64,000 bases of DNA from an uncultured archaeon (lineage in GTDB: Archaea; Aenigmatarchaeota; Aenigmatarchaeia; GW2011-AR5), in NCBI GenBank assembly GCA_964373695.1, contig CAYJVT010000002.1, forward strand, positions 1,020 to 65,019. The letters are read 5' to 3'. A program made the position numbers and the translations under genes. The notes under the pieces were generated by a model, which was not told where the DNA came from, did no database searches, and saw only the letters and a list, made by a program, of their open reading frames with translations. The first letter of the stretch is position 1. Each line of letters starts with the position of its first letter. Below, in pieces: positions 26,510-51,418 of this stretch.

Positions 26510-26595
26510 TGGGCTCGGCAGGAATTGAACCTGCGGCCTCCTGCGTGTGAAGCAGGCGTCATACCAATGTCCGCGATGCTCTAGACTACAAGCCC
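26510..26595 (-). tRNA. tRNA-Val(CAC) with ~13–14-nt D-loop intron
   Basis: Minus-strand GGGCTTG...CGAGCCC acceptor; anticodon arm CCTGC-TTCACAC-GCAGG; T-arm GCAGG-TTCAATT-CCTGC. D-region is 30 nt instead of 17 (GTC-TAG[AGCATCGCGGACAT]TGGTAT-GAC). Confidence 0.8.
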
Positions 26596-27200: not shown

Positions 27201-27209
27201 ATTATTAAT

Positions 27210-27368
27210 GGGCCGGATGAGATTTGAACTCACGACTTCAGTCGGCGGAACCTTCCGGATGCCGCCGTCTCCTGTTGGCTTAGAGCAATATTTTGTTCTT
27301 GATGCACGCATGTTTTAACAAAATACGTCATATAAGACAGGTGCTCTACCAGCCTAAGCTACCGGCCC
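27210..27368 (-). tRNA. Intron-containing tRNA (tentatively Ile, anticodon UAU), about 159 nt with two inserts
   Basis: Acceptor GGGCCGG/CCGGCCC; D-arm GCTT-AGGCTGGTA-GAGC; anticodon stem CCTGT...ACAGG enclosing 61 nt (loop CTTATA + ~54-nt intron); T-arm GTGAG-TTCAAAT-CTCAT; discriminator A. A further ~32-nt hairpin insert lies between the anticodon stem and T-stem. Confidence 0.7.
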
Positions 27369-38159: not shown

Positions 38160-38657
38160 ATGATAAAGAAAATCAGAATACCGGATGAAAGGATACCGGT
38201 TCTCATAGGGAAGAATGGAAAAACTAAAGCCATGATACAGAGACTGACGCACACAAAAATCGACATTGGGGAAGAAGCGACAGTGGAAGGCGAGGCTGTG
38301 GATGTCATGACCGCAGAGAGCATCATAAAAGCCATCGGCAGAGGATTCTCACCGGAAGCTTCAGAAATCCTGTGCAGGGAAGACAGCACGCTGGAGATAA
38401 TCCAGCTCCCGAAAGAGAGAAAAGAATTAAATAGGATAAAATCAAGATTAATAGGAACCAAAGGGAAGTGTAGGAGGAACATAGAAAACCTTACCAAAAC
38501 CCGCATATCGGTCTTCGGAAAGACAGTTTCGGTCATAGGTCCGTACGATAACGTGAGGTTTGTGGTAGAGGCGCTTCAAAGACTTATAAAAGGCGACACA
38601 CACAGTTCCGTTTACAGGTTTCTGGAAGAGAACCAGGAAAAAATGAATTTTGAGTAA
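38160..38657 (+). CDS. KH-domain RNA-binding protein (Dim2/Pno1-like)
   Basis: Two KH units with IPVLIGKNGKTK and LIGTKGKCRRNIE GxxG loops. Start set at MIKKIRIPDER; the upstream in-frame part overlaps aIF1A. Confidence 0.7.
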   Translation: MIKKIRIPDERIPVLIGKNGKTKAMIQRLTHTKIDIGEEATVEGEAVDVMTAESIIKAIGRGFSPEASEILCREDSTLEIIQLPKERKELNRIKSRLIGTKGKCRRNIENLTKTRISVFGKTVSVIGPYDNVRFVVEALQRLIKGDTHSSVYRFLEENQEKMNFE

Positions 38658-41600
38658 GCCGGTGATGATCATGTCAAAGAAAACCGCGGAAGACTTCGCG
38701 AAGCAACAGAAGGAAATAAGCATATCAGAATTCTTTGAAAAGAACAAGCATCTTCTTGGCTTTGACAATCCGACAAAAGCCCTTCTCATGGCTGTGAAAG
38801 AAGCTGTCGACAATTCTCTTGATGCATGTGAAGAGGCCGAGATACTTCCTGACATAACCGTGAAAATAAAAAACCTGAAAGAAGATGTATACAAAGTATC
38901 GGTTCAGGACAACGGTCCGGGAATAGTGAAAGAACAGGTTCCGAGGATATTCGGCAAATTGCTCTATGGCTCTAAATTTCACCGATTGCGCCAGTCCAGA
39001 GGTCAGCAAGGAATTGGGATATGCACAACACCAGATACTTTAATACCTCTTGCAGACGGGCGCATAAAAAGGATAGAAGATATCGTAGAGTCGGAATTAG
39101 AAGAGGAAATATTTACACTCGCACCGGACATGAAACTAGTGCCAAACAAAATGAAAAAATTCTGGAAATTACCTGCGCCGGAAAAAATGATAAAAATAAA
39201 AATGCTCGGGGGCGGGAGCCTGACACTAACAAGAGAGAATCCTGTGCTAATAAAGACAGATTTCGGCTTAAACTGGAAACCCGCTGAGCTTGTAGCGCCA
39301 AGAGATTATATTGCTATGGCAAGAAATCTCTCTATAAATCATAATGAAAAAAAGATTCCACTTATCAGTTTGCTGGATGAAAATGTGCGTGTTGACAACT
39401 ACGAATTTCTTAGTGAAGTGCTGAGTATTTTGAAAAAAAGACATGGTACATGGTCTAAATTAGGAAATATATACGGCCTGCAAAAGGATCTTCTGAAGGG
39501 GTGGAAAAAGATGGGCATCAGAAGACGTCCAACACTAAAACAATATATTATGCTAGCTAAAGATGCAGGCTTCTCTGAAGATTATATAACAGAGAGCATA
39601 ATACGGGTTGGCAGGCTTGGGACTTATATAAAAATTTTTCGATATATGACCCCTGAACTAGCACGTCTCGCTGGCTTGGTGGCTGGCGATGGTAATATCC
39701 AGGCAAAGAGAAAAAACAGATGGGGTACAAACATATCTTTCTGGAATAATGATACAAAACTTATAGAAGAGTTCTGCAGCATAGTTTACAATTTTTTTGG
39801 TATAAGACCGAATGTTTATGCCCATACAAAAGGCCGCGGGACAGGGGCACAATTCTCGTCCTCAATAGTTGCTGATATTTTAGAAAAACTCGGTGTCCCA
39901 AGAGGTAGAAAAAGCGAGAAATTTGAAATCCCTGATTTGATACGACAAAACGGAGATCTGTCTGCTGCTTATCTTGGGGGGTTGTTTGATGCAGAAGGCT
40001 CTGTCAGCAGCGACAGAAAATGCATAACTCTTATGCTGAGTAACAAAAATGTAATCAATGTCATACGTCTTATGCTTCTTAGATTTGGCATAGTAAGCAG
40101 GATTAATAAAGCAGGAAAACATACAAGATTAATTATATCATCTGCGAAAAATGTAGAAAAATTCAAGAATATAATAGGCTTTACAATTAAGACAAATAAA
40201 GCAAAATTAGATTCATTAAAATTCTATAATGACAGAAAATGCAATCTTGAAGTCATACCGCATGTTAAGTATGCTGTTAAAAATTCTGTAAAAGAGATCG
40301 GTACCAGTTATTATGCTTTAAGAAGCCCAAATGAAATTTCTTCTATAAGAAGAGGCAGTGCAGTAAGCCATGAAACTCTTAATTCTTTATGTGAAGTGCT
40401 TGTTGAAAATTCCGGGGAAAGACTACCGCTTCCAGTACAAGAACTTGTAGGAATGGCGAATGCTGATGTAACATGGGCAAAGGTAATAGAAACAAAAGAA
40501 ATTGACTCTCCATGTGAATATGTTTATGACATAACTATGGGCATAGGTAATAATTTCGTAGCAAATGGGTTTGTAATACATAATTCAGCCGTTGTCCTGT
40601 ATTCGCAGCTTACCACAGGAAGCCCTACACGAGTTCTTTCAAAGACCGATGAAAAGAAAAAAACCCAGGCGTTTGAACTCATAATAGATACCAAAAAAAA
40701 CGAGCCTGAGATAGTAAAACATGAGGAAAAAGAAGACGGCATACAAGGCACCGGCATAAGGGTTGAGATGGATGTAGTCGGCAGGTACAGGAAGTCACAG
40801 GGAGTGGATGACTATCTTAAGCAGACTTCGATATCGAACCCGTTTGCAAAAATCTCATACAATGCGCCAGACGGGACGAAGATGCTATTTTCGAGGACTG
40901 TCAACGAGCTTCCCGTCCCGCCGAAGGAAATAAAGATACATCCATACGGCGTCGAGTTCGGCATTCTGCAGAGATTCCTCAACCAGACGAATTCGCGCAC
41001 TTTGCAGGCATTCCTCGTGAACGAATTTTCATCCGTTGGCCAGCAGACAGCGAAAGAAATGTGCAATATAGCAAAGCTTGACCCTAATATGAAACCCATT
41101 GACCTGTCAAGAGAGCATATCGAAAAGCTCCTTGGCGCGATGCAAAAAGCAAAGGTGCAGAGGCCGCCTCTCGACTGCCTTTCCCCCATAGGGGAGAAGG
41201 AGCTTGAAAAGAGCCTGAAAAAAGAATATCCGGATGCTGAATTCATAACAACCCTAACCAGGTCGCCTGAAGTCTACAGAGGCAACCCTTTCCAGATAGA
41301 AGTCGGCATAGTCTACGGCGGGCCTGATATAAAATCTGACGGGCCGATAGAAGTTATAAGGCTCGCGAACAGGGTGCCGCTGCTGTATCAGGCCGGTGCA
41401 TGCGCCACGATGGAAGCCATAAAGGAAGTCGACTGGAAGAGATACGGCCTCCAGCAGTCTGGCAATAATTTGCCGATAGGGCCGGTGATACTTGTCGTTC
41501 ACATGTGCTCCGCGTGGGTACCGTTCATATCCGAGAGCAAGGAGGCGATAGCATCCTATCCCGACATAATAAAAGAGATGAAACTCGCTGTACAGGATGC

Positions 41601-41811
41601 CGGCAGGAATCTCTCAAGGTACCTCTCCGGGAAAAGGCGAGCTGGCGATGCCAAGAGGAGAATACAGATATTTGAAAGGTACAGCGCCGAAGTTGCATCT
41701 GCGGTGTCTCTGCTTACAAAAAAATCCGAGAAAGACATAGAGAAAAAACTAAAAAACATGATAGCCCAGAGGACGCATATAAAAGATGAGGAAGAGAAGC
41801 AAGAAATATAG
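38650..41811 (+). CDS. top6B: DNA topoisomerase VI subunit B, interrupted by a 521-aa intein
   Basis: Bergerat-fold ATPase motifs EAVDNSLDA, DNGPGI and GKLLYGSKF...SRGQQGIG|C, then the C-extein with transducer domain. Extein total is about 532 aa. Confidence 0.9.
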   Translation: MSKPVMIMSKKTAEDFAKQQKEISISEFFEKNKHLLGFDNPTKALLMAVKEAVDNSLDACEEAEILPDITVKIKNLKEDVYKVSVQDNGPGIVKEQVPRIFGKLLYGSKFHRLRQSRGQQGIGICTTPDTLIPLADGRIKRIEDIVESELEEEIFTLAPDMKLVPNKMKKFWKLPAPEKMIKIKMLGGGSLTLTRENPVLIKTDFGLNWKPAELVAPRDYIAMARNLSINHNEKKIPLISLLDENVRVDNYEFLSEVLSILKKRHGTWSKLGNIYGLQKDLLKGWKKMGIRRRPTLKQYIMLAKDAGFSEDYITESIIRVGRLGTYIKIFRYMTPELARLAGLVAGDGNIQAKRKNRWGTNISFWNNDTKLIEEFCSIVYNFFGIRPNVYAHTKGRGTGAQFSSSIVADILEKLGVPRGRKSEKFEIPDLIRQNGDLSAAYLGGLFDAEGSVSSDRKCITLMLSNKNVINVIRLMLLRFGIVSRINKAGKHTRLIISSAKNVEKFKNIIGFTIKTNKAKLDSLKFYNDRKCNLEVIPHVKYAVKNSVKEIGTSYYALRSPNEISSIRRGSAVSHETLNSLCEVLVENSGERLPLPVQELVGMANADVTWAKVIETKEIDSPCEYVYDITMGIGNNFVANGFVIHNSAVVLYSQLTTGSPTRVLSKTDEKKKTQAFELIIDTKKNEPEIVKHEEKEDGIQGTGIRVEMDVVGRYRKSQGVDDYLKQTSISNPFAKISYNAPDGTKMLFSRTVNELPVPPKEIKIHPYGVEFGILQRFLNQTNSRTLQAFLVNEFSSVGQQTAKEMCNIAKLDPNMKPIDLSREHIEKLLGAMQKAKVQRPPLDCLSPIGEKELEKSLKKEYPDAEFITTLTRSPEVYRGNPFQIEVGIVYGGPDIKSDGPIEVIRLANRVPLLYQAGACATMEAIKEVDWKRYGLQQSGNNLPIGPVILVVHMCSAWVPFISESKEAIASYPDIIKEMKLAVQDAGRNLSRYLSGKRRAGDAKRRIQIFERYSAEVASAVSLLTKKSEKDIEKKLKNMIAQRTHIKDEEEKQEI
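39022..40584 (+). mobile_element. Intein with LAGLIDADG homing-endonuclease domain in top6B
   Basis: Begins with Cys directly after GIGI. LAGLVAGDGNI and LGGLFDAEGSV dodecapeptides. Ends VANGFVIHN with +1 Ser. About 30% GC against ~45% in the exteins. Confidence 0.85.
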
Positions 41812-41821
41812 GTAGTATATA

Positions 41822-44506
41822 ATGCCGCAAAAAAACGTGGGCGCGGAGCTGAAGAAACTCGGCGAATCCGTGCTAAACCATATAGAGAAAGGCGAGAACC
41901 CGAACATAGACATACCGCTAAGAACATTGTCCAACGTGATATTCGACAAAAAATTAGGGCAGCTTACCCTCGGCGGCAAGAGCGCCAAAAGGTACTTCTT
42001 CAATGTTGCCCACTCAAAAAAGTTCATGCAGACCCTTATGGTGGCAGGATTCTGCAATTCCCTTCTCGAAGAAGGCATACATACCAGCATAAGAGACATG
42101 TACTACAACCTCAAGCGGACGCTTCCGCAGAGCGATGAGAATACTTTCGATGAGCAGAGCGAGAGTATTTGCCCTGATGAGCCCCTGCTTGTCAAAATGG
42201 ACGGAGACCTCAGAATTTTGAGCGGAGAAGACCTCATGAGACATGCGGAAAAATCCGGGAAGGTAATATACGACAAAAACGGCAAGAAAAGAATCGTCGG
42301 GTTAGACCTCTATACCTATGCGTTTGATGAAAACCAGAAAATAAGAGAACAGAAGGTATCAATGGTCATAAAGCATCCCTCAAATAAAATCAAGAAAATA
42401 AAAACCTCCTCCGGAAGGGAAGTAAAAGTAACAAAGTCTCACAGCTTATTTACTCTTAAAGACGGGAAAGTAACTGAAATAAAAACAAATGAACTCAAAG
42501 AGGGCGACATGATAGCCCTTCCGAGAAAAATTTCTATAAAAGAAAACAACAAGCCAATAAATGTCATCGATAGCCTTCTTAGAAATGCTCCAGATGATGT
42601 TGTAAAGCTGTTCTATGTGAAGTCAGACAAAGACACAATAAATGAAGTAATAAAGAGGGTGGGAAAGGAGAGAATACGAATTTTTTCTTCGAATAATTAT
42701 AAAAATATATGGAGCGATGTAAAAGCTAACTGGAAGCATTGGAACACAGTCCCTATAGAGATTTTAAGGGACGTAGATTTGTCCGACATATTATCTAAAT
42801 TAAAAATCGGCGGCAGGGGATCTAGGCACTATTATAATGTACTGATAAACAAGGATTCCAGCTTGGGCTTTGTTCTTGGATTTCTCATTAGCGAGGGCTC
42901 TCATTCTATATTTGAGGGTAGGAATTCAAGATACGTATCCATAAGCAATAAATCAAAGATGCACCTGCAAAATTTCTGGGATGCATTCAAGCACTCGTTT
43001 GGAGAGACAACGGATGGTAATATCATATTGGGCAAAGATGATGTGTATAAGCTAAACATAGGGTATGATACACTTAGCTATATCCTTGAGTATGTTATAG
43101 GCTATAAACCTGTGAGGGCGTGGGAAAAAGAGGTTCCACATGTTATTCTCGATGCACCTCAAGATTGCATAAAGGAATTTCTGAGAAGCTTTAGGCTTGG
43201 AGATGGAAGCGTATTCGAAGGCAAAATGCTTGTAAATGGCTTGGTTTTTCTGCTGCTAAGGCATGGAATATTCCCCAGAATATATCACTATAAAATATCT
43301 GAAAAAAATCCGAACCATAAAGATGCATATGAAATCAGAATTGGCCCGAGGGAATATGTCAAAAATATGGCTCAGATAACACATGATTTCATGGGTATAG
43401 ACATAGAAAAAACAAGAGATTTCTCTTCAGACATGATACCAAACGTAGGGAGCCTTCTTCTAAAGACCAGAAAATCCTGTGACAGGCAAGGCATAGTTTA
43501 CAGAGAAAGAAATATAGGATGGAATTATATCGAGAACAAAAACAGCGTAAGCAGACTTCTTTTAAATAAAATGTCAAAGATATTGGATTCTTACGGCGCT
43601 TCGCAGCATTATTTAGATGAACTAAATGAACATGTAGAAAGCGACATATATTGGGATAGTATAATATCAATAGAAGACGACGAAATGCCGCCTTACACGC
43701 TGGATCTGGCTGTTCCGCCACATGAAAATTTCATAGGCGGGAACGGTCTTCTGATGCTTCACAATTCCGACCCGCTTATAGTCGATCTGGAAGTAGCACT
43801 GGACGTCTTAAGAGAGCAGCTGCACCTGACAACCGACAGGAAGGGAATAGTCGCAGGCAATGTCGTGATAGAGGACAGAGGCGACAGCATAGACTGGTCA
43901 AAGCTCGGGAGCGGCGGATGGTCGATACCGAGCACAGTTGACGAAATCAAACTCAAAAAGGTGGACGCAAAATTTGTTCTTGTTTGTGAAAAAAATGCCG
44001 GCTTCGAGCGCCTGCACGAGGACAAGTTCTGGCAGAAGCAGAAATGCATATTGGTCGGGACAGGAGGCCAGCCGTCAAGAGGCGCCAGACTTCTGATACA
44101 GAGATTGAATTCTGAATATGACCTGCCTGTTTATGTATTTTGCGATAACGACGCCTACGGCTTTTATATTTATTCAGTGATAAAATCCGGCTCGATAAGC
44201 CTTGCGCACGTTTCAGACAGAATATCGACACCGGAAGCTAAATTCATTGGGCTGACAACATCTGACATCTATGATTATAACCTCAAGAAATGCACGATAA
44301 AACTCAAGGAAGTTGACATAAAGCGCGCCAAGGAGCTGCTGGAATATGAATGGTTCAAGAAGAACCCCAAGTGGCAGAAAGAAATAAACCTCATGCTTGA
44401 AAAAGGCGTGAAAGCCGAGATAGAGGCGCTCTCTCACAGGGGTCTTAAATTCATGTCAGAGGAATACCTGCCGGACAAAATCAAGAAAGGCGATTTTCTC
44501 GATTAA
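41822..44506 (+). CDS. top6A: DNA topoisomerase VI subunit A (Spo11 homolog), interrupted by a 532-aa intein
   Basis: N-extein ...MYYNLKRT...FDEQSESI. C-extein carries Toprim (VLVCEKNAGFERL..., DNDAYGFYIY). Extein total is about 362 aa. Confidence 0.9.
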   Translation: MPQKNVGAELKKLGESVLNHIEKGENPNIDIPLRTLSNVIFDKKLGQLTLGGKSAKRYFFNVAHSKKFMQTLMVAGFCNSLLEEGIHTSIRDMYYNLKRTLPQSDENTFDEQSESICPDEPLLVKMDGDLRILSGEDLMRHAEKSGKVIYDKNGKKRIVGLDLYTYAFDENQKIREQKVSMVIKHPSNKIKKIKTSSGREVKVTKSHSLFTLKDGKVTEIKTNELKEGDMIALPRKISIKENNKPINVIDSLLRNAPDDVVKLFYVKSDKDTINEVIKRVGKERIRIFSSNNYKNIWSDVKANWKHWNTVPIEILRDVDLSDILSKLKIGGRGSRHYYNVLINKDSSLGFVLGFLISEGSHSIFEGRNSRYVSISNKSKMHLQNFWDAFKHSFGETTDGNIILGKDDVYKLNIGYDTLSYILEYVIGYKPVRAWEKEVPHVILDAPQDCIKEFLRSFRLGDGSVFEGKMLVNGLVFLLLRHGIFPRIYHYKISEKNPNHKDAYEIRIGPREYVKNMAQITHDFMGIDIEKTRDFSSDMIPNVGSLLLKTRKSCDRQGIVYRERNIGWNYIENKNSVSRLLLNKMSKILDSYGASQHYLDELNEHVESDIYWDSIISIEDDEMPPYTLDLAVPPHENFIGGNGLLMLHNSDPLIVDLEVALDVLREQLHLTTDRKGIVAGNVVIEDRGDSIDWSKLGSGGWSIPSTVDEIKLKKVDAKFVLVCEKNAGFERLHEDKFWQKQKCILVGTGGQPSRGARLLIQRLNSEYDLPVYVFCDNDAYGFYIYSVIKSGSISLAHVSDRISTPEAKFIGLTTSDIYDYNLKKCTIKLKEVDIKRAKELLEYEWFKKNPKWQKEINLMLEKGVKAEIEALSHRGLKFMSEEYLPDKIKKGDFLD
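42170..43765 (+). mobile_element. Intein with LAGLIDADG homing-endonuclease domain in top6A
   Basis: Starts CPDEPLLVKMDG. LAGLIDADG-like LGFLISEGS and FRLGDGSV. Ends GLLMLHN with +1 Ser. Exact N-terminal junction is ±1 residue uncertain. Confidence 0.8.
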
Positions 44507-44527
44507 TTTTATTCTTTTTAAATGTCT

Positions 44528-44565
44528 AAAATTCCACCATCTATCGTATAAATATGGTGGAATTT
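44528..44565 (+). terminator. Perfect 12-bp inverted repeat hairpin followed by T-run
   Basis: AAATTCCACCAT-ctatcgtataaat-ATGGTGGAATTTT immediately after the top6A stop. Confidence 0.5.
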
Positions 44566-44573
44566 TAACATGC

Positions 44574-44601
44574 AAATCCACTGTTTTCAAACAGTGGATT
44601 T
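44574..44601 (+). terminator. Second hairpin (AAATCCACTGTT-ttcaa-AACAGTGGATTTTT)
   Basis: Perfect inverted repeat followed by a T-run, between top6A and tRNA-Asn. Confidence 0.5.
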
Positions 44602-44632
44602 TTAAACATTCCATAAAATGTTATTCTACACT

Positions 44633-44789
44633 GCCTCGGTAGCTCAGTACAAATCCCTTCTTTGTAAAGAAGGTCTTGGTGAACCCCAAGAAACTATTAT
44701 ACAATGGATAGGGAGAAAGGTAAGCAGTCTCTACAAAGAGCATTTGGCTGTTAACCAAAGGGTCGACGGTTCGAGTCCGTCCCGAGGCG
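44633..44789 (+). tRNA. tRNA-Asn(GUU) with ~83-nt intron in the D-loop
   Basis: Acceptor GCCTCGG/CCGAGGC; D-stem GCTC...GAGC separated by ~92 nt; anticodon arm TTTGG-CTGTTAA-CCAAA; V-loop GGGTC; T-arm GACGG-TTCGAGT-CCGTC; discriminator G. Confidence 0.85.
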
Positions 44790-44879
44790 CTTTTTAATTA
44801 ATGAAAATAAGGGGAAAAGAGGTGAATAAAAGATTCAAAAACCGTTTTAATAAAAGAAATGAGTTTTCGTGTCTGGGTT

Positions 44880-45011
44880 GGGAAGGTAATCTTAATTGCT
44901 AATTAATTAAGACCTTAAGTTCAGCCTGGGAGAACACACAGAATATGTAAAGTATTCTGGTTCAAACGGCTGAAGACCGTGACGTCGAGGGTTCAAATCC
45001 CTCCCTTCCCA
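44880..45011 (+). tRNA. tRNA-Phe(GAA) with two ~30-nt introns (acceptor/D junction and anticodon-stem position ~27/28)
   Basis: Acceptor GGGAAGG/CCTTCCC; D-arm GTTC-AGCCTGGGA-GAAC; reconstructed anticodon arm CACGG-CTGAAGA-CCGTG; V-loop ACGTC; T-arm GAGGG-TTCAAAT-CCCTC. 132 nt − 74 nt mature = 58 nt, matching the two inserts. Confidence 0.8.
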
Positions 45012-45141
45012 TACAAGTCAAGCTTTTAAGCATCACGCCAATATTCAACACAGAAGAGGGTATAGAGGAACAGGGAACTGTTTCTCGTCCTGCTTCTTAA
45101 AAGACCCAAGAGCCCTTCTCTTGGACTGAAGAGGTGTTTTC

Positions 45142-45726
45142 ATGTCAAAAGAAGATAAAGAAGAGGCCGCTAGCGAGCTGCCGCCGGAGAAGGTAAAGAA
45201 CATACCCACGACCTTGGAAGAGAGCAAGGTCATATCCACCAAGGACTGGCAACAGGTATACGAGCCCGGATACTACGGAAAGCAGATAGGCGAGCGTCTT
45301 GAGCTTGCTCTGGTGGAAGCCGTGCTCCTGCTTAAAAGAGGCAGGATAGAGGTGTTCAGGGAAGGCAAGAGCATGAGCTTCAAGGAACTCTATGAACATG
45401 CCGCATCTCTTGACAAGAGGTTTGTTGAAAGATACCGCGTATATGAAGACCTGAGGGAAAGGGGGCTCTTGGTCAGGACAGGCTTCAAGTTTGGCTGCGA
45501 TTTCCGCGTGTACGAAAGGGGAGTGCAGCTGAAGAAAGGCCCGAAAAGCGCCAAGGAGCACACCAAATGGATAGTATTCTGCGTGCCGGAGGATTTCACG
45601 ATGTCTTTCCAAGAGCTTTCCAGGTCTGTAAGACTTGCCCATAATATAAGAGCAAGAATGCTCTGGGCAATTGTCGACAATGAAGGGGACTGCACATATT
45701 ACATCATCCAGAGAATGAAGCCCTAG
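45142..45726 (+). CDS. endA: tRNA-splicing endonuclease, catalytic subunit (EndA)
   Basis: C-terminal catalytic domain RTGFKFGCDFRVYE ... HTKWIVFCVPED (Tyr/His/Lys triad context). About 194 aa with an N-terminal domain. Confidence 0.85.
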   Translation: MSKEDKEEAASELPPEKVKNIPTTLEESKVISTKDWQQVYEPGYYGKQIGERLELALVEAVLLLKRGRIEVFREGKSMSFKELYEHAASLDKRFVERYRVYEDLRERGLLVRTGFKFGCDFRVYERGVQLKKGPKSAKEHTKWIVFCVPEDFTMSFQELSRSVRLAHNIRARMLWAIVDNEGDCTYYIIQRMKP

Positions 45727-45817: not shown

Positions 45818-46933
45818 ATGAAAGTAAGAGATATAATGGTAAAAGATGTAGTTTTTGCGGACTCTGAAGACTTCGTCAGCAGCGCACTGGCCAAGATGAA
45901 GTCCAAAAAGATAAGCCAGATAGTCGTCAACACGAAGGGTATGTTCGCCGGCATCATAGAGCTGAAGAACATCGTGACGAAGGATATAGACATATCAAAA
46001 ACTAAGGTCGGGACCTTGATGAAGAAGTCGGGCTTCGTCAAGCCCGATGACGATGTTCTGGATGCGGCGAAGTCTATCATTTCTAACGGCACAAGAGCCC
46101 TTCCGGTCATGGAAGGCGGAAGAGTTTCCGGCATAATCTCGGAGACAGACATAGTCGGCGTCGCTGATAAGTTCATGAATACAGAATCAGCGATAACCGG
46201 CATAGTTTCCAAATCGGTTTATGCGCGGAAGGACGACAACATTGGCAGAATAAGGCACCTGATGCTGAATGAAAACGTGTCTAGAGTGCCTATAGTCGAA
46301 GGCGGGAGGGTTGTCGGCGTTGTAGGAACCCTCGACCTTGTGAAGGCCGTCGAAGCTAAGAGGGGCTTCGAGGCCAGATCGAAGACGCGGGATACTGGAT
46401 TCAAGGAAAAGACACGGATAGAGGAGATAAAGGCGGCAACCATAATGTCGGAAGCCATGACCGTCAGAGGAGACGAGAAGATAAAAAACGTCATAAAGCT
46501 CCTTCAAAGAAACGAGCAGGTGATAATGGAGAACGGCAAAACGTGCATAATCACCCCGAAAGACATCATAGAACTTTTCCTTTCCGCGCCGACAAAGCGC
46601 GTTTACGTTCAGGTGACCGGGATGCAGGAAGAAGGTATGGAATTCCAGTCAGAGATGGACTCCATAACCACGAAATTCGTGCAGAAAGTCGGAAAAAGTT
46701 TCCGCGACATCCAGGGCTTGATCGTTCATGTCGAGACCTACCATAAACAGGGGCCAAAATCCAAATACTCCATACGAGCTAGATTAATAACCGAGAATGG
46801 TATATTCATTTCTCATTCTCTCGGATGGAATCCGATAGATGCAATACAAGAAGCGTTCAAAAAGCTTGAGAATGAGATAAGACACTATATGGGAAAGAAA
46901 ACCAGAAACTTCAAGAGCAAGACATCGCTATAA
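45818..46933 (+). CDS. CBS-domain protein with C-terminal alpha/beta domain
   Basis: Four CBS repeats (IMVKDVVFADSED..., ...ALPVMEGGRVSGIISETDIV, ...RVPIVEGGRVVGVVGTLDLV, ...). About 120-aa C-terminal domain of unknown family. Confidence 0.8.
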   Translation: MKVRDIMVKDVVFADSEDFVSSALAKMKSKKISQIVVNTKGMFAGIIELKNIVTKDIDISKTKVGTLMKKSGFVKPDDDVLDAAKSIISNGTRALPVMEGGRVSGIISETDIVGVADKFMNTESAITGIVSKSVYARKDDNIGRIRHLMLNENVSRVPIVEGGRVVGVVGTLDLVKAVEAKRGFEARSKTRDTGFKEKTRIEEIKAATIMSEAMTVRGDEKIKNVIKLLQRNEQVIMENGKTCIITPKDIIELFLSAPTKRVYVQVTGMQEEGMEFQSEMDSITTKFVQKVGKSFRDIQGLIVHVETYHKQGPKSKYSIRARLITENGIFISHSLGWNPIDAIQEAFKKLENEIRHYMGKKTRNFKSKTSL

Positions 46934-48442
46934 TTTCTTAACTGGATCCCCGAGGGACTCCACTGGCTCTCCCGATATATACATCCTCATCTTTCCTGGC
47001 AGATCGCTGACCTTTATCCTGACCTGTTTCATGGTATCCCTGTCGCGAAGTGTCACGGTGCCGGATGAAATCGTGTCTGAATCCACCGTTATGCAGGCGG
47101 CGACCCCTATCTCGTCCATTCTTCTGTATCTGCGGCCAATGCTGCCGGAATCATCGTAAAAAACATCCATGCCGGCGGTCACGAGGGTTTTCCTTATTTC
47201 CGTGGCCTTGGCGTCCATCCCGTCCCTTTTTACAAGCGGCAGGACGGCACAATCAAAAGGCGACAAAACCCTCGGCAGCCTGAATATAGTCCTTTCCTCC
47301 TGGCCCACAGTCTCTTCGACGAATCCCATGTCAAGAACGGCATATACGTTCCTGTCGACCCCGAAGGAAAGCTCCAGCACGTGCGGAATGAACTTCTTGC
47401 CGTCGTGAAAAATATCCATGTTGCGGCCCGACACCTTCTGGTGGCCCGCAAGATCGTGGTCGGTCCTGTAGTGTATGCCCCCGACCTCCCTGAACCCTTC
47501 CATGCTCTCGATATCGAGCTCAATGTCCCAGTGGTACTTATTGTAAAAGGCTTTCTCCTCGTCACTGAGCTCCCTGAACCTGAACTTTTCCGGCGCTATT
47601 CCGAGAACTTCGAGATAGAATTTTTGTATCATTGCCATATAGTAAACGTAGAACTTCGGCAGCTTTACAGAGGCATTGCTGCAGGAAATCTCATGGACTA
47701 TGCCCGACTTCCTGGAATCAACCGAAAGAAGCCTTAGATTGTACGAAGAGACTTCATCGAACCTTTCGTGGCCGTTTATCATGTCCGGGTTGAAAAATAT
47801 CTGCAGCTCGGCCTGGTCGAATTCCCTCATACGTATCAACAGATTCCTGGGACTTATCTCGTTCCTGTAGGCACGGCCCAGTATCGCAAGGCCCAACGGG
47901 AGCCGCTTCCTCAAGACCTCAAACTCCCTTGGGAAGCTCACGTAAGCCCCCTGAGCTGTTTCTGGCCTCAGATAACCGAGAGACGAGCCTATCATAACAG
48001 GGAACATCATGTTCAGAATCCCGACCTCTTCCAGCTCCCCTCCGCATTTCGGGCATTTTATCCAGTGTTCCCTAATGAGCTTTGTGAGTCCATTGGCTGA
48101 CAACCCCTCAAAACTTTCTTTAAGGATGGATTCTACAAGGTGGTCCGCCCGCTCCAGACTGCCGCATTTACTGCATTTTGTTATCGGGTCGACGAAGGAA
48201 TCCACATGTCCCGAGGCCTTGAAGACCCTGTCGGGCATCATGTTCCTGCAGTCTATCTCGAAGAAATTCCAGTCCAGCCCAAGGAAATATTTCCTCCATA
48301 AATTCTCCCATTTTCTCTTTATCAGAGTCCCTATATGGCCGTAGTCATAGAGTCCTGAAACGCCTCCGTATATGTCCGAAGAGACCCAGAAAATTCCCCT
48401 GCGCCTTGCTATCTCCTCTATTTTGTTTTCTTTCTTCGCCAT
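46928..48442 (-). CDS. glyS: Glycyl-tRNA synthetase (archaeal/eukaryotic class II type)
   Basis: 504 aa. Class II motifs FRNEISPRNLLIRMREFDQAE (motif 2) and GIHYRTDHDL (motif 3). Confidence 0.9.
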   Translation of the reverse strand: MAKKENKIEEIARRRGIFWVSSDIYGGVSGLYDYGHIGTLIKRKWENLWRKYFLGLDWNFFEIDCRNMMPDRVFKASGHVDSFVDPITKCSKCGSLERADHLVESILKESFEGLSANGLTKLIREHWIKCPKCGGELEEVGILNMMFPVMIGSSLGYLRPETAQGAYVSFPREFEVLRKRLPLGLAILGRAYRNEISPRNLLIRMREFDQAELQIFFNPDMINGHERFDEVSSYNLRLLSVDSRKSGIVHEISCSNASVKLPKFYVYYMAMIQKFYLEVLGIAPEKFRFRELSDEEKAFYNKYHWDIELDIESMEGFREVGGIHYRTDHDLAGHQKVSGRNMDIFHDGKKFIPHVLELSFGVDRNVYAVLDMGFVEETVGQEERTIFRLPRVLSPFDCAVLPLVKRDGMDAKATEIRKTLVTAGMDVFYDDSGSIGRRYRRMDEIGVAACITVDSDTISSGTVTLRDRDTMKQVRIKVSDLPGKMRMYISGEPVESLGDPVKKL

Positions 48443-48495: not shown

Positions 48496-49749
48496 ATGGG
48501 GCGATACGTTCTCACCGAGGAGGGCAGAAAATACCTGGAAACCGGCATGCCGGAGATGAACCTTGTAAAGCTCCTGGAATCCGGAAACATTGAAATTAAG
48601 GAAGCACAAAAGCTTGAAAACTTTTCAATAGCATTGCAATGGGCAAAAAAGAACGGCTGGGTCGAGATAAGACAGGACTTTCTGGTTCTTACAAAATGCC
48701 CCGAATCGTACGAAATCGAAACGGCATTGAAAAGCATCGCCTCCAACAAAGAAATCTCAAATAATATGGCTCAAATACTTCTGCAAAGGAACCTGCTGCA
48801 GGAAGAAAAGGAGGATGCATACAAAAGAGCTGAAAAATACAAAGGGACGGAAGTATCAGCTCTCAACGAGGACATAATAAAAACTGGTTATTGGAGTGAA
48901 ACAATAATCAGAGCGTACAATGTAGAAGCTTTGGGGAAGAAAATCTATCCCGGAAAGAAGCAGCCTTATGCCGCGTTTCTGGACTGGGTGAAAAACAAGA
49001 TGATTGGCCTTGGCTTCGAAGAAATGTCAGGGCCCATAGTCGAAACGGAATTCTGGAATATGGACGCATTGTATATGCCGCAGTTCCATGCGGCAAGGGA
49101 CATACATGATGCGTATTTCCTAAAAGAACCAAAATATGCCAGAGCCATTGATAAAAACATCCTAAATGCAGTTAAAAAAACGCATGAAAAAGGCACATCG
49201 GAGTCGAGGGGGTGGGAATACCAGTACGATATCAAGAGAGCCCACAGGCTTGTGTTAAGAACTCATGACACGGCAATTTCTCCCAGAACCCTCTCATCTC
49301 CGGAGCTTAAAGTTCCAGGAAAATACTTTCACGTAGCAAGATGTTTCAGATATGATGTAGTAGACGCCACTCACCTGCCGGATTTTTACCAGCTAGGTGG
49401 TTTTGTAATAGACAAAGACCTTAATTTGAGGCACCTAATAGGCCTGTTGAAACTTTTTTCAAGGGAATTCGCAAACACCGACAAAATAAAGATAATGCCC
49501 AGCTATTTCCCTTTTACAGAACCGAGCGTTCAACTCATGGCAAAGCATCCCAAATTCGGGTGGCTTGAACTTGTAGGTGCTGGGATATTCAGGCATGAGA
49601 TGGCAATACCTCTTGGAATAAAGCATCCTGTCATCGCGTGGGGAGCCGGTCTTGACAGGATATTCATGATGAGTTCCGGGATAAACGACATAAGGGACCT
49701 GTTCAGCTACGACCTTAATTACTTGAGAAAAAGCCCTGTAACATATTGA
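48496..49749 (+). CDS. pheS: Phenylalanyl-tRNA synthetase alpha subunit
   Basis: 417 aa. Class II core FRYD...FYQLGGFVI and GAGLDRI. Confidence 0.9.
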   Translation: MGRYVLTEEGRKYLETGMPEMNLVKLLESGNIEIKEAQKLENFSIALQWAKKNGWVEIRQDFLVLTKCPESYEIETALKSIASNKEISNNMAQILLQRNLLQEEKEDAYKRAEKYKGTEVSALNEDIIKTGYWSETIIRAYNVEALGKKIYPGKKQPYAAFLDWVKNKMIGLGFEEMSGPIVETEFWNMDALYMPQFHAARDIHDAYFLKEPKYARAIDKNILNAVKKTHEKGTSESRGWEYQYDIKRAHRLVLRTHDTAISPRTLSSPELKVPGKYFHVARCFRYDVVDATHLPDFYQLGGFVIDKDLNLRHLIGLLKLFSREFANTDKIKIMPSYFPFTEPSVQLMAKHPKFGWLELVGAGIFRHEMAIPLGIKHPVIAWGAGLDRIFMMSSGINDIRDLFSYDLNYLRKSPVTY

Positions 49750-49759
49750 AGGTGAAAAA

Positions 49760-51418
49760 ATGCCTACTATAGAAGTTTCGATGAAAGCCCTGGAAAAGCT
49801 TGCCGGAAGAAAAGTGAAGGAAAAAGATCTTGAGGCCGTGAAAGGGGAAATAGAAGAAACCGAAGGCGGCAAGGCAAAGATAGAAATAGGCGATACAAAC
49901 AGGCCTGATTTGTGGTGCGTCGAAGGGATAGCAAGGGTTCTCAGGGGAAAACGCTTCCAGAAACTTCCCGTCAAAAACAGCGGGAAAGAAATCATAGTCG
50001 ACAGGAAAATTCTTGGCATAAGACCTTTCATATCGGGCTTTGTCGTTAAAGGCGTGAATGTTGATGAGGAACTGCTTCTGGATATGATACAACTCCAGGA
50101 CAAACTTGATGAAAACTATGGGAAGAAGAGGAAAAAGATATCCATCGGCATATACAATTATGACATGATAAAATTCCCTGCGCATTACAAGGCCGTCAGC
50201 CCATCTCACAAGTTCGTGCCTCTTGGCCTTGACAAGCCTCTCACCATGAGAGATATATTGTCCAAACACCCCAAAGGTAGGGATTATGGATATATTGTTC
50301 GCGAGCACAAATTGTATCCGCTGCTTATCGACATGAAGGAAGATGTCCTCTCATTCCCACCAATAATAAACAGCAACTATCTCGGAAAGGTCAAGTTGGG
50401 AATGCAAAATCTTATGGTAGAAGTCACAGGAACCGACCAGAAATCCGTCCTTCTTGCTGCCAATATCTTTGCATATTCGCTTTATGACAGAGGAGCTAAT
50501 ATAGAGTCGATAACGACCAGATATCCGTCCACAACAAAGTTCGGGAGGTCAGTTACTTGTCCGTATGATTTCTGCCAGAAAATGTCATTCAACAGGAAAA
50601 ATGTGGAGAGTGTCCTTGGGATTGACCTGAAAAGCACGGAAATAAAGTCTCTGCTGGAGAAAATGCAATACGATGCTGAAATCTCCAATGATAAAGTAAT
50701 TGTTGTCATCCCCCCCTACAGAAATGACGTGATGCACTATACAGACGTGATAGAAGATATAGCAATAGCATACGGATACGGGAACTTCAAGGAATCTGGA
50801 ATTGAAAGCTTTACTGTCGGCAATCTAATGAAAGAGACACTTTTCACCGAGAATGTAAGAAGGGTTATGATAGGTATCGGATTTCAGGAAATAATGTCCG
50901 CGATACTTTCCAGCAAATCTGCCCTGTGTGATAAGATGAACACATCCTCAGAGCCACTGAAAATAGAAAATGTCATGTCAGAAAACTATTCGCATGTGAG
51001 GAGCTGGGTTCTACCAAGCATTCTTGCATGCCTGACGAAAAACATGCATAACGAATACCCGCAGAAGGTATTCGAGGTCGGGGAATGTGTGATTCGGGAC
51101 AAGAAATCATATACAGGAACAGTAACAATACAAAAAATAGCTGGCGCGATTTCAAGCGGAATTGCAGGCTATGAAGACATATCCTCGTGCATAGATGCTC
51201 TGCTTTGCGGCATCGGAGCAAAATACGAACTGAAGCTTTCGGTGCATCCCAGCTTTATAGAGGGCAGATGTGCCGACATATTAATCGGAGGGGATAAAGC
51301 CGGCATCGTAGGCGAAATACACCCCAAAGTGCTGAATAACTGGTCCATAGAAAAGCCGGTCGCGGCTTTTGAAGCTGATGTCAACTCCTTACTGAAAGCT
51401 TCCACTTCACGGGACTGA
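49760..51418 (+). CDS. pheT: Phenylalanyl-tRNA synthetase beta subunit (archaeal form)
   Basis: 552 aa immediately downstream of pheS. B3/4 and B5 domain pattern. Length typical for archaeal PheT. Confidence 0.9.
   Translation: MPTIEVSMKALEKLAGRKVKEKDLEAVKGEIEETEGGKAKIEIGDTNRPDLWCVEGIARVLRGKRFQKLPVKNSGKEIIVDRKILGIRPFISGFVVKGVNVDEELLLDMIQLQDKLDENYGKKRKKISIGIYNYDMIKFPAHYKAVSPSHKFVPLGLDKPLTMRDILSKHPKGRDYGYIVREHKLYPLLIDMKEDVLSFPPIINSNYLGKVKLGMQNLMVEVTGTDQKSVLLAANIFAYSLYDRGANIESITTRYPSTTKFGRSVTCPYDFCQKMSFNRKNVESVLGIDLKSTEIKSLLEKMQYDAEISNDKVIVVIPPYRNDVMHYTDVIEDIAIAYGYGNFKESGIESFTVGNLMKETLFTENVRRVMIGIGFQEIMSAILSSKSALCDKMNTSSEPLKIENVMSENYSHVRSWVLPSILACLTKNMHNEYPQKVFEVGECVIRDKKSYTGTVTIQKIAGAISSGIAGYEDISSCIDALLCGIGAKYELKLSVHPSFIEGRCADILIGGDKAGIVGEIHPKVLNNWSIEKPVAAFEADVNSLLKASTSRD

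Follow-up and report, generated by a model that had tools for sequence, protein, structure and literature searches.

A single-unit RNA-splicing endonuclease with an L3 loop and without the canonical catalytic lysine in an Aenigmatarchaeota archaeon

The RNA-splicing endonuclease EndA is the textbook example of subunit architecture evolving together with substrate range, and the Tyr/His/Lys triad of its active site is regarded as unchanging between archaea and the human TSEN enzyme. The subject of this work is the endA gene of an uncultured Aenigmatarchaeota archaeon, which lies beside two interrupted tRNA genes on a 64,000-nucleotide stretch of contig CAYJVT010000002.1 (assembly GCA_964373695.1, positions 1,020 to 65,019 of the forward strand), hereafter referred to as the window. 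The names carried by close homologs assign the window to Candidatus Aenigmatarchaeota, a DPANN phylum. The gene encodes one EndA unit that carries the catalytic Tyr and His, a basic L3 loop between them and an Ala at the site of the catalytic Lys, a substitution that recurs throughout the related sequences. In a sister clade of the same phylum, the gene is accompanied by a beta-like copy.

The endA gene and its product

The gene and the residues that matter for the argument are located as follows.

45142–45726, plus strand: endA, RNA-splicing endonuclease, single-unit alpha4-like form with L3 loop, 194 aa (Pfam, NCBIfam, PDB search, AlphaFold2, Foldseek)
45511–45513, plus strand: catalytic Tyr124, aligned to Y115 of Methanocaldococcus jannaschii
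within 45511–45561, plus strand: L3 loop V128–K138, including K131-K132-G133-P134-K135, aligned to the 90–98 loop of Nanoarchaeum equitans
45559–45561, plus strand: catalytic His140, aligned to M. jannaschii H125
45652–45654, plus strand: Ala171 (GCA), at the site of the canonical catalytic Lys (M. jannaschii K156, Archaeoglobus fulgidus K287, ARMAN-2 K282, Methanopyrus kandleri K334)
45676–45723, plus strand: acidic L10 loop D179-N-E-G-D183 and C-terminal beta strand (TYYIIQRMKP), aligned with M. jannaschii VDADGDIVYYNMTYVKP

A Shine-Dalgarno-like GAGGTG (45131–45136) lies 5 nt upstream of the ATG. Both EndA domains are matched in Pfam (PF02778, N-terminal, 2.6e-17; PF01974, C-terminal catalytic, 1e-27), and the TIGR00324 endA equivalog model of NCBIfam reaches 113.1 bits with a cutoff of 59.6, which bears out the gene call and the length of 194 residues given in the initial annotation. 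In a search of PDB sequences, the top match is the alpha4 EndA of M. jannaschii (1a79, 2e-35), followed by the M. kandleri enzyme and the catalytic subunit of N. equitans. An AlphaFold2 model made from a 95-sequence alignment (predicted local distance difference test, pLDDT, 87.5; predicted template modelling score, pTM, 0.81) has 1a79_A as its best Foldseek match (TM 0.79/0.89, E 6.5e-18), and the other top matches are all EndA or TSEN chains.

Conservation was assessed by scanning one genome per species, which yielded 80 Aenigmatarchaeota loci with an ortholog at 53–92% identity. Tyr124 and His140 are unchanged in all 80 species, as is the bulge-binding Arg164 of helix alpha5, which aligns with R280 of A. 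fulgidus, and the C-terminal domain is near-invariant across these species and the close homologs. The N-terminus is a 20-residue low-complexity extension. Relative to M. jannaschii, six extra residues between Tyr and His make up the L3 loop, which in the model lies between the strands bearing Tyr124 and His140. It aligns without gaps with its counterpart in N. equitans (GVQLKKGPKSAKEHTKW in the window, GVIPKKGKRSEREHSKW in N. equitans), KKGPK pairing residue for residue with K93-K94-G-K96-R97, and Gly133, Pro134 and Lys135 are constant in 80/80 species, in 120/120 close homologs and in every other alpha sequence that was examined. The L10 loop is similarly constrained among the 80 species, with Asp179 kept in 80, Glu181 in 77 and Asp183 in 74.

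These features can be set against the known architectures. An epsilon2 enzyme is a three-unit polypeptide of about 390 residues with an ASL loop; the window protein consists of one unit and aligns to a single unit of 4fz2 at a time. In heterotetramers, L10 is unconserved in the catalytic subunit and its function is left to the beta subunit (Mitchell et al. 2009), whereas L10 is strongly kept in the window's group. What is found is the alpha4 arrangement, namely one subunit of the ~180-aa type with catalytic residues, an acidic L10 and the C-terminal strand, together with the basic insertion between Tyr and His that marks the DPANN L3-loop class. L3-bearing alpha4-type EndAs have been described in a number of DPANN lineages whose tRNA genes are heavily disrupted, where L3, the 'Nanoarchaea/ARMAN-2 specific loop', represents a third specificity loop, and the Crenarchaea-specific loop (L1/CSL) was not found in DPANN (Kaneta et al. 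2018, PMC5829648). The structure prediction and alignment proposed in the initial annotation as a check on the enzyme type therefore point to an alpha4-like protein with 1a79 as the best match, not to an epsilon2 one, and to an L10 unlike that of a partnered alpha subunit.

An active site without the canonical lysine

All solved EndAs have the third triad residue on the helix that follows the catalytic His. The segment AHNIRARML of the window protein aligns without gaps with AHSVRKKLL of M. jannaschii (K156), AHSTRKKML of N. equitans (K133), AHSVRKTFI of ARMAN-2 (K282) and AQNVRKRMV of A. fulgidus (K287), and Ala171 stands opposite Lys in the ungapped alignments to five solved enzymes. None of about 240 Aenigmatarchaeota sequences has Lys at this position. 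The residue is Ala in 119/120 close homologs, Ala (77) or Ser (3) in the 80 species, and Ala in 39/39 members of a second alpha group and also in the alpha proteins of the tandem operons described below. The adjacent Arg170 is invariant and Lys142 is present in 75/80 species, while position 172 is occupied by Arg (56), Lys (13), Asn (6), Ser (2), Thr (2) or Glu (1). Arg172 was considered as a shifted, general replacement of the lysine and rejected, the position being Asn, Ser, Thr or Glu in 11/80 species.

Across the wider family, almost all catalytic domains among 150 diverse representatives are Tyr-His-Lys. The single-unit representatives with Tyr-His-Ala/Ser number eight (P0122, P0123, P0128, P0131, P0139, P0170, P0195 and the catalytic repeat of P0121), and 8/8 have the long loop with Lys135; two of them are labelled Aenigmatarchaeota and one Nanohaloarchaea. 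P0121, a protein of 360 aa, has a fused two-unit look with Ser at the Lys position in both units. Lys-less EndAs outside the Aenigmatarchaeota comprise P0131 of the Nanohaloarchaea, in which the canonical Lys is absent and the G-P-K loop present, and P0166/P0412 of the Diapherotrites, with Thr at the Lys site and without the long loop.

When Ala replaces this Lys, the enzymes of ARMAN-2, M. kandleri and A. fulgidus no longer cleave, and the Tyr/His/Lys triad is described as conserved, with no exception mentioned, in the literature examined, including Kaneta et al. 2018 (PMC5829648) and later reviews and structures. Loss of function is unlikely in the window protein, since Tyr124, His140, Arg164 and Arg170 are intact and nearly invariant. 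The EndA proteins recovered with an Aenigmatarchaeota label are all of the Tyr-His-Ala type or of a His-less beta type, and no Tyr-His-Lys protein with this label was seen among the recovered proteins, few of which carry names.

The partner subunit and a duplication in a sister clade

The initial annotation had noted a single EndA-type subunit in the window and had reasoned that the non-canonical intron positions in the window are thought to need a heterotetrameric or epsilon-type enzyme, so that a partner subunit or an unusual architecture was to be expected elsewhere. The observation stands: a six-frame search of the 64-kb window with two hidden Markov models (HMMs), the family HMM and a broad HMM of 318 EndA domains with structural, non-catalytic repeats included, found no second EndA-like open reading frame (ORF), and none was present within 3 kb at any of the 80 related species' loci. 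The reasoning, whose premise predates the current literature, is not supported, since L3-bearing alpha4 enzymes are known from DPANN archaea and subunit type is the smallest contributor to substrate recognition (Kaneta et al. 2018, PMC5829648). A partner is therefore not required, because the window protein bears the very L3 loop known from DPANN alpha4 enzymes of organisms with disrupted tRNA genes.

Candidate structural subunits do occur in the phylum. A search of 50%-identity representatives returned relatives at 38–48% identity in which neither the catalytic His nor L3 is present but L10 is kept; these are referred to as beta-like. These paralogs are 161–176 aa long and retain Tyr124, Lys142, Arg170 and L10, the His and L3 having both been lost. 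The family is large in a profile search, and several of its members are labelled Aenigmatarchaeota. In 6/6 look-ups, the beta-like gene immediately preceded an alpha gene, the two being 5–14 nt apart in five look-ups and separated by a single other gene in the sixth. The beta-like gene usually comes after a Peptidase_M54 gene, and a CBS-domain gene like that of the window then follows; in two cases (four loci), the genes of topoisomerase VI subunits B and A (TopoVI-B and TopoVI-A) lie just upstream of the pair. The order of TopoVI, CBS and aminoacyl-tRNA synthetase genes matches that of the window in several cases. The slot of the beta gene in this sister clade is the slot of the two tRNA genes in the window. 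The tandem operon (Peptidase_M54, beta, alpha, CBS) was observed at loci L084–L099, for example at L089 (4001–5066) and L085 (4001–5061).

The L10 loop differs between the classes. The single alpha proteins (VDNE.D.TYY; VDNEGDCTYY for the window protein) and the beta-like proteins (VDNDxDVTYY) keep it, whereas it is degenerate in the tandem alpha proteins (VVSKDEKVKYF, IVGKK--IKYV). This pattern is a signature of subfunctionalisation and matches the alpha2beta2 rule of Mitchell et al. 2009. In a neighbor-joining tree (172 columns, Kimura distances, 100 bootstraps), the beta-like proteins form a clade with 99% support, the window's group is monophyletic (84%), and all Aenigmatarchaeota EndA-like proteins hold together (89%). 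The beta-like proteins, the tandem alpha proteins and an alpha group of 178–183 aa constitute a clade (85%) without the window's group. Since the window's lineage lies outside this clade and retains both L10 and the catalytic residues, these sequence relationships argue that it never had the beta-like paralog. The expected partner is thus probably absent in the window's lineage and present in the sister clade, where a duplication from alpha4 to alpha2beta2 appears to have occurred within the phylum, separate in origin from that of N. equitans. Of the partner or unusual architecture that had been anticipated, a beta-like paralog exists only in the sister clade, and the unusual feature is to be found in the active site, which is without the Lys, rather than in the architecture.

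Interrupted tRNA genes beside endA

Two tRNA genes precede endA. Their exon limits come from manual reading, a scan for bulge-helix-bulge (BHB) motifs and comparison with relatives, notably those at loci L064 and L004, and had to be set by hand because ARAGORN and Rfam at the gathering threshold detect neither gene; the sole Rfam match is a partial one to the 3' part of tRNA-Asn (26.9 bits).

44633–44789, plus strand: tRNA-Asn(GUU) gene with an interrupted D-loop; first exon to about 44647–44649, 3' exon 44738–44789
44648–44718, plus strand: mobile BHB-type intron in the tRNA-Asn D-loop, about 71 nt, with borders estimated from homology and BHB geometry
44719–44722, plus strand: GGTA micro-exon, probably D-loop G18-G19-U20-A21, by comparison with the L064/L004 D-loop AGCAGGTA
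44723–44737, plus strand: 15-nt insert AGCAGTCTCTACAAA between the presumed GGTA and the D-stem
44880–45011, plus strand: tRNA-Phe(GAA) gene with two introns, from the BHB scan; 130-nt spacer to the endA ATG
44889–44918, plus strand: tRNA-Phe intron 1, 30 nt, position 9/10, hBHBh'
44938–44965, plus strand: tRNA-Phe intron 2, 28 nt, position 27/28, relaxed HBh'

The distance of 130 nt between tRNA-Phe and endA, the two tRNA-Phe introns and the non-canonical positions of the introns in these neighbouring genes are as the initial annotation had them. Intron 1 of tRNA-Phe has the H helix AAGG/CCTT, an outer h helix of 10 bp drawn from the 5' leader and an inner h' helix of 9 bp, and intron 2 has the H helix GAAC/GTTC with no h (0 bp) and an inner h' of 8 bp. 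The spliced 74-mer is a normal tRNA-Phe according to ARAGORN. Both introns are shared, at identical sites, by L064, whose EndA is 92% identical, and the h' helix of intron 2 is fully compensatory there (CAGAATA/TATTCTG in the window, TGGGATG/CATCCCA in L064); the fold is supported by this change on both strands.

The interpretation of tRNA-Asn is less straightforward. The copy in L064 is intron-less and provides a reference for the mature sequence, and in comparison the window has 90 nt in place of the 6-nt CAGGTA, a net gain of 84 nt. The 83-nt D-loop intron of the initial annotation is thereby about right in size and correct in place, but not as a single clean BHB intron, as a strict BHB search of the insert gave no clean single motif. 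The best reading is a 71-nt mobile intron followed by the GGTA micro-exon and the 15-nt insert, the exact splice sites being uncertain; it is preferred because homology with L004 puts the 3' border of the mobile intron directly in front of GGTA. The intron contains the internal hairpins CCTTCTTT/AAAGAAGG and TCTTGG/CCAAGA, with compensatory changes in hairpin 1 between the window and L004, and its motif is relaxed (H CTC/GAG with a G.A mismatch; bulges AG|T and AA|G). The 15-nt insert resembles the 5' exon-intron junction AGCTCAGTACAAA (44641–44653), and the BHB scan found no motif fitting it. A one-intron alternative would take out 84 nt between TACAAA repeats and leave the D-loop AGUACAAA without G18G19. 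ARAGORN is no arbiter between these readings, because all spliced variants, the one-intron and several two-intron forms, are called tRNA-Asn.

The mobile BHB-intron family found here in the tRNA-Asn D-loop (core AATCCCTTTCTTGnAAGAAAGGTCTTGGTGAACCCCAAAGAAC) also occurs in the T-loop of tRNA-Asn in L004 (about 2690–2760) and L026 (about 885–975), where its hBHBh' motif (TTCG/CGAA) is perfect; a third relative does not have it. A further copy (6787–6850, in the region 6787–6863 of the window) lies directly 3' of tRNA-Gly. It is bordered by 14 nt that duplicate the 3' end of the tRNA (TCCCGGCAGGCGCA / TCCAGGCAGGCGCA), which looks like intron transposition with target duplication.

Interruption is general in the window, where 5/5 tRNA genes are affected and non-canonical introns are the norm. 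The tRNA-Gly(GCC) gene (6697–6786) has about 18 extra nt in the variable region, a non-canonical intron position. On the minus strand, 26510–26595 reads as tRNA-Val(CAC) with a D-loop insert of about 13 nt and is miscalled as Cys by ARAGORN, and 27209–27368, miscalled as Arg, can be read as a tRNA-Ile(UAU) that has an intron at 37/38 (H CTTA/TAAG) and an insert in the variable region. An isoleucine tRNA with a UAU anticodon is unusual in archaea.

Neighbouring genes

From 5' to 3', the gene row consists of TopoVI-B, TopoVI-A, the two tRNA genes, endA, a CBS-domain gene, a class II aminoacyl-tRNA synthetase gene and the genes for the phenylalanyl-tRNA synthetase (PheRS) subunits alpha and beta.

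38650–41811: TopoVI-B, 1053 aa, containing an intein with a LAGLIDADG homing-endonuclease domain
41822–44506: TopoVI-A, 894 aa (361–380 aa in relatives), containing an intein with a LAGLIDADG homing-endonuclease domain
45818–46933: CBS-domain gene
46928–48442, minus strand: class II aminoacyl-tRNA synthetase
48496–51418: PheRS alpha and beta

An insertion of about 80 nt (44525–44605) separates TopoVI-A from tRNA-Asn and contains two perfect hairpins, AAAATTCCACCAT...ATGGTGGAATTTT and AAATCCACTGTTT...AAACAGTGGATTT; its only Rfam match is psRNA14, below threshold. It resembles a miniature inverted-repeat transposable element, because it is missing from the equivalent spacer of L004 and is bordered by TTTTTAAA repeats. 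In L064, the closest relative, tRNA-Asn and tRNA-Phe have between them a free-standing LAGLIDADG endonuclease ORF (about 2110–2790) that stops just before the 5' end of tRNA-Phe, and the window is without such an ORF.

Architecture and catalysis of the enzyme

With moderate confidence, endA can be regarded as the only RNA-splicing endonuclease gene of this archaeon, its product most likely assembling into an alpha4 homotetramer that belongs with the L3-loop enzymes of DPANN archaea and in which the role of the lysine has presumably moved to L3. One polypeptide can fill both roles because Tyr124, His140, Arg164, L10 and the C-terminal strand are all present, and each 194-aa subunit could accordingly serve at the catalytic and at the structural positions in the tetramer alike. 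Two diagonal active sites would cut the two bulges of BHB motifs, and the Lys-rich L3 beside the active site would probably add phosphate contacts, such that relaxed motifs could be accepted anywhere in the pre-tRNA. The specificity of the enzyme would thus be broad, and the BHB motifs of the adjoining pre-tRNAs are plausible substrates.

The catalytic part of this proposal is put forward more tentatively. The active site of the Aenigmatarchaeota, and of at least some Nanohaloarchaea, may have been rewired, with the triad Lys lost from helix alpha5 and its role taken over by G-P-K135 of L3. In such a site, Lys135, possibly with Lys131 and Lys132, would supply positive charge at the scissile phosphate in lieu of the transition-state-stabilising Lys, and the same loop would widen substrate tolerance. 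The loop at the 90–98 position of N. equitans is close to the catalytic triad (Hirata et al. 2012). Furthermore, L3 is tied to catalysis by the fact that the non-catalytic duplicate lost His and L3 together, which is consistent with a relocation of the lysine to this loop.

Several points weigh against this picture. Assembly as a homotetramer is deduced from the sequence, and the absence of a second gene covers the window and 80 loci, so that a divergent partner may lie elsewhere in the genome. The tree is a neighbor-joining tree on 172 columns, in which the beta-like branch is long. L3 is the lowest-confidence part of the model (pLDDT ~61), and in ARMAN-2 the K241A and K244A substitutions in the equivalent loop are reported to have no effect on activity or specificity. 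In addition, Lys142 and Lys116 are also near the site, both being kept in Lys-bearing enzymes and beta-like proteins, and P0166 of the Diapherotrites is a single-unit Tyr-His-Thr protein without the long loop. The existence of such Lys-less, loop-less proteins indicates that loss of the Lys is not always paired with an L3 lysine.

The dispensable L3 lysines of ARMAN-2 and the loop-less Tyr-His-Thr proteins of the Diapherotrites would also suit an enzyme in which the two residues Tyr and His suffice, or in which Arg170, Arg172 or Lys142 compensates, and in which L3 only widens specificity. Compensation has candidates, as Arg170 is invariant, 69/80 species have Arg or Lys at position 172 and Lys142 is almost always retained. 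However, Arg170 and Lys142 do not explain the loss, because they are equally present in the enzymes that keep the Lys. Position 172, which is neither Arg nor Lys in the other 11 species, is no conserved substitute, and G-P-K135 shows no variation in precisely those proteins that lack the Lys. This explanation is therefore considered rather unlikely, although it is the strongest of the alternatives to a transfer of the lysine's role to L3.

Somewhat less likely still is an alpha2beta2 or other composite enzyme to which the 194-aa protein contributes the catalytic alpha subunit and whose structural partner is encoded elsewhere in the genome. A beta-like family does exist in the Aenigmatarchaeota, and its genes might be unlinked in some lineages, because the 178–183-aa alpha group clusters with the tandem alpha and beta proteins and yet has no adjacent beta gene. 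Against this, the beta gene adjoins alpha in every look-up and is found within 3 kb at none of the window-type loci, the window's group falls outside the duplication clade, L10 is under a constraint unlike that of a partnered alpha subunit (Asp179 in every species), and alpha4 enzymes with L3 have already been described in DPANN archaea with disrupted tRNA genes.

The proximity of endA to intron-rich tRNA genes could be taken to mean that enzyme and substrates form a co-regulated module, an idea with little probability. Among the 80 related loci, at least 29 have the 3' half of tRNA-Phe, and at least 14 have tRNA-Asn, within the 1.5 kb upstream of endA, and the distance to the genes for PheRS alpha and beta is 3.5 kb. 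However, any tRNA neighbour would carry introns, because all five tRNA genes of the window are interrupted, so that an intron-rich tRNA beside endA is expected by chance, and the slot holds the Peptidase_M54 and beta genes in the sister clade. The LAGLIDADG ORF splits the two tRNA genes in L064, and the intron content of tRNA-Asn and tRNA-Phe differs among the window, L064 and L004. A meaningful endA-tRNA adjacency was rejected on account of the interruption of every tRNA gene and the different filling of the slot in other clades, and the arrangement is local synteny and no functional unit.

The least credible reading, which is regarded as very improbable, is that the protein is a structural or regulatory EndA-like subunit while a canonical Tyr-His-Lys EndA elsewhere does the cutting, as might be suggested by the enzymes of ARMAN-2, M. 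kandleri and A. fulgidus, which are inactive once their Lys is changed to Ala, but Tyr124 and His140 are invariant and the C-terminal domain nearly so, whereas structural subunits lose the His; the tandem operons have no canonical active site, because their sole His-bearing subunit also has Ala171; and the recovered Aenigmatarchaeota-labelled EndAs, few as the names are, include none with Tyr-His-Lys.

To conclude, the situation described in the initial annotation is largely explained by known biology, in that a DPANN alpha4-type L3 EndA lies beside tRNA genes that are ordinary for this genome. What goes beyond routine is the phylum-wide absence of the catalytic Lys and the within-phylum duplication from alpha4 to alpha2beta2. 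A phylum without the Lys, in which the rest of the site is extremely constrained, is a test case for the role of this residue and for its replacement by a loop lysine, and if that replacement is true, catalysis and relaxed substrate recognition are coupled in one loop, L3. The occurrence of single-gene and duplicated forms in one phylum offers a young and clean example of the subfunctionalisation by which heterotetrameric and eukaryotic enzymes are proposed to have arisen. In terms of annotation, standard tRNA finders miss most tRNA genes of these genomes.

Comparison with known systems

The alpha4 EndA of M. jannaschii (PDB 1A79) is likewise a single unit of about 180 residues with both domains, the Tyr and His, and L10 with the C-terminal strand (VDNEGDCTYYIIQRMKP in the window, VDADGDIVYYNMTYVKP in M. 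jannaschii). The window protein differs in its 6-residue L3 insertion, in having Ala for K156 and in its 20-residue N-terminal extension. Moreover, the M. jannaschii enzyme is described as strict, whereas the tRNA introns of the window are non-canonical in position and their motifs relaxed.

NEQ205, the catalytic subunit of the alpha2beta2 enzyme of N. equitans (PDB 3IEY), has an L3 insertion at the same site as the window protein and comes from a DPANN organism with highly disrupted tRNA genes. In contrast to the window protein, which has Ala, a conserved L10 and no partner gene in the window, NEQ205 has Lys133, needs the structural subunit NEQ261 and shows an unconserved L10. The epsilon2 EndA of ARMAN-2 (Ca. 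Micrarchaeum; PDB 4FZ2, 9W2K) is another DPANN enzyme with an insertion at the L3 position (240–247) near the triad, and it has broad specificity. It is, however, a 390-aa polypeptide of three units that derives its specificity from the ASL loop (K161), and K282 is kept while the L3 lysines are dispensable.

The window protein belongs to the class of L3-loop alpha4-type EndAs that is known from DPANN and Hadesarchaea (Kaneta et al. 2018, PMC5829648). These are single-subunit enzymes with L3 in organisms that have many non-canonical and multiple tRNA introns; their triad is described as conserved, whereas the window protein lacks the Lys. The closest parallel in phylum and locus is the tandem beta-alpha operon of the Aenigmatarchaeota at L084–L099, the alpha protein of which has the same Tyr, His and Ala171 together with the G-P-K loop. 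There, a structural copy without His and L3 accompanies an alpha subunit with a degenerate L10, whereas in the window one gene keeps both functions.

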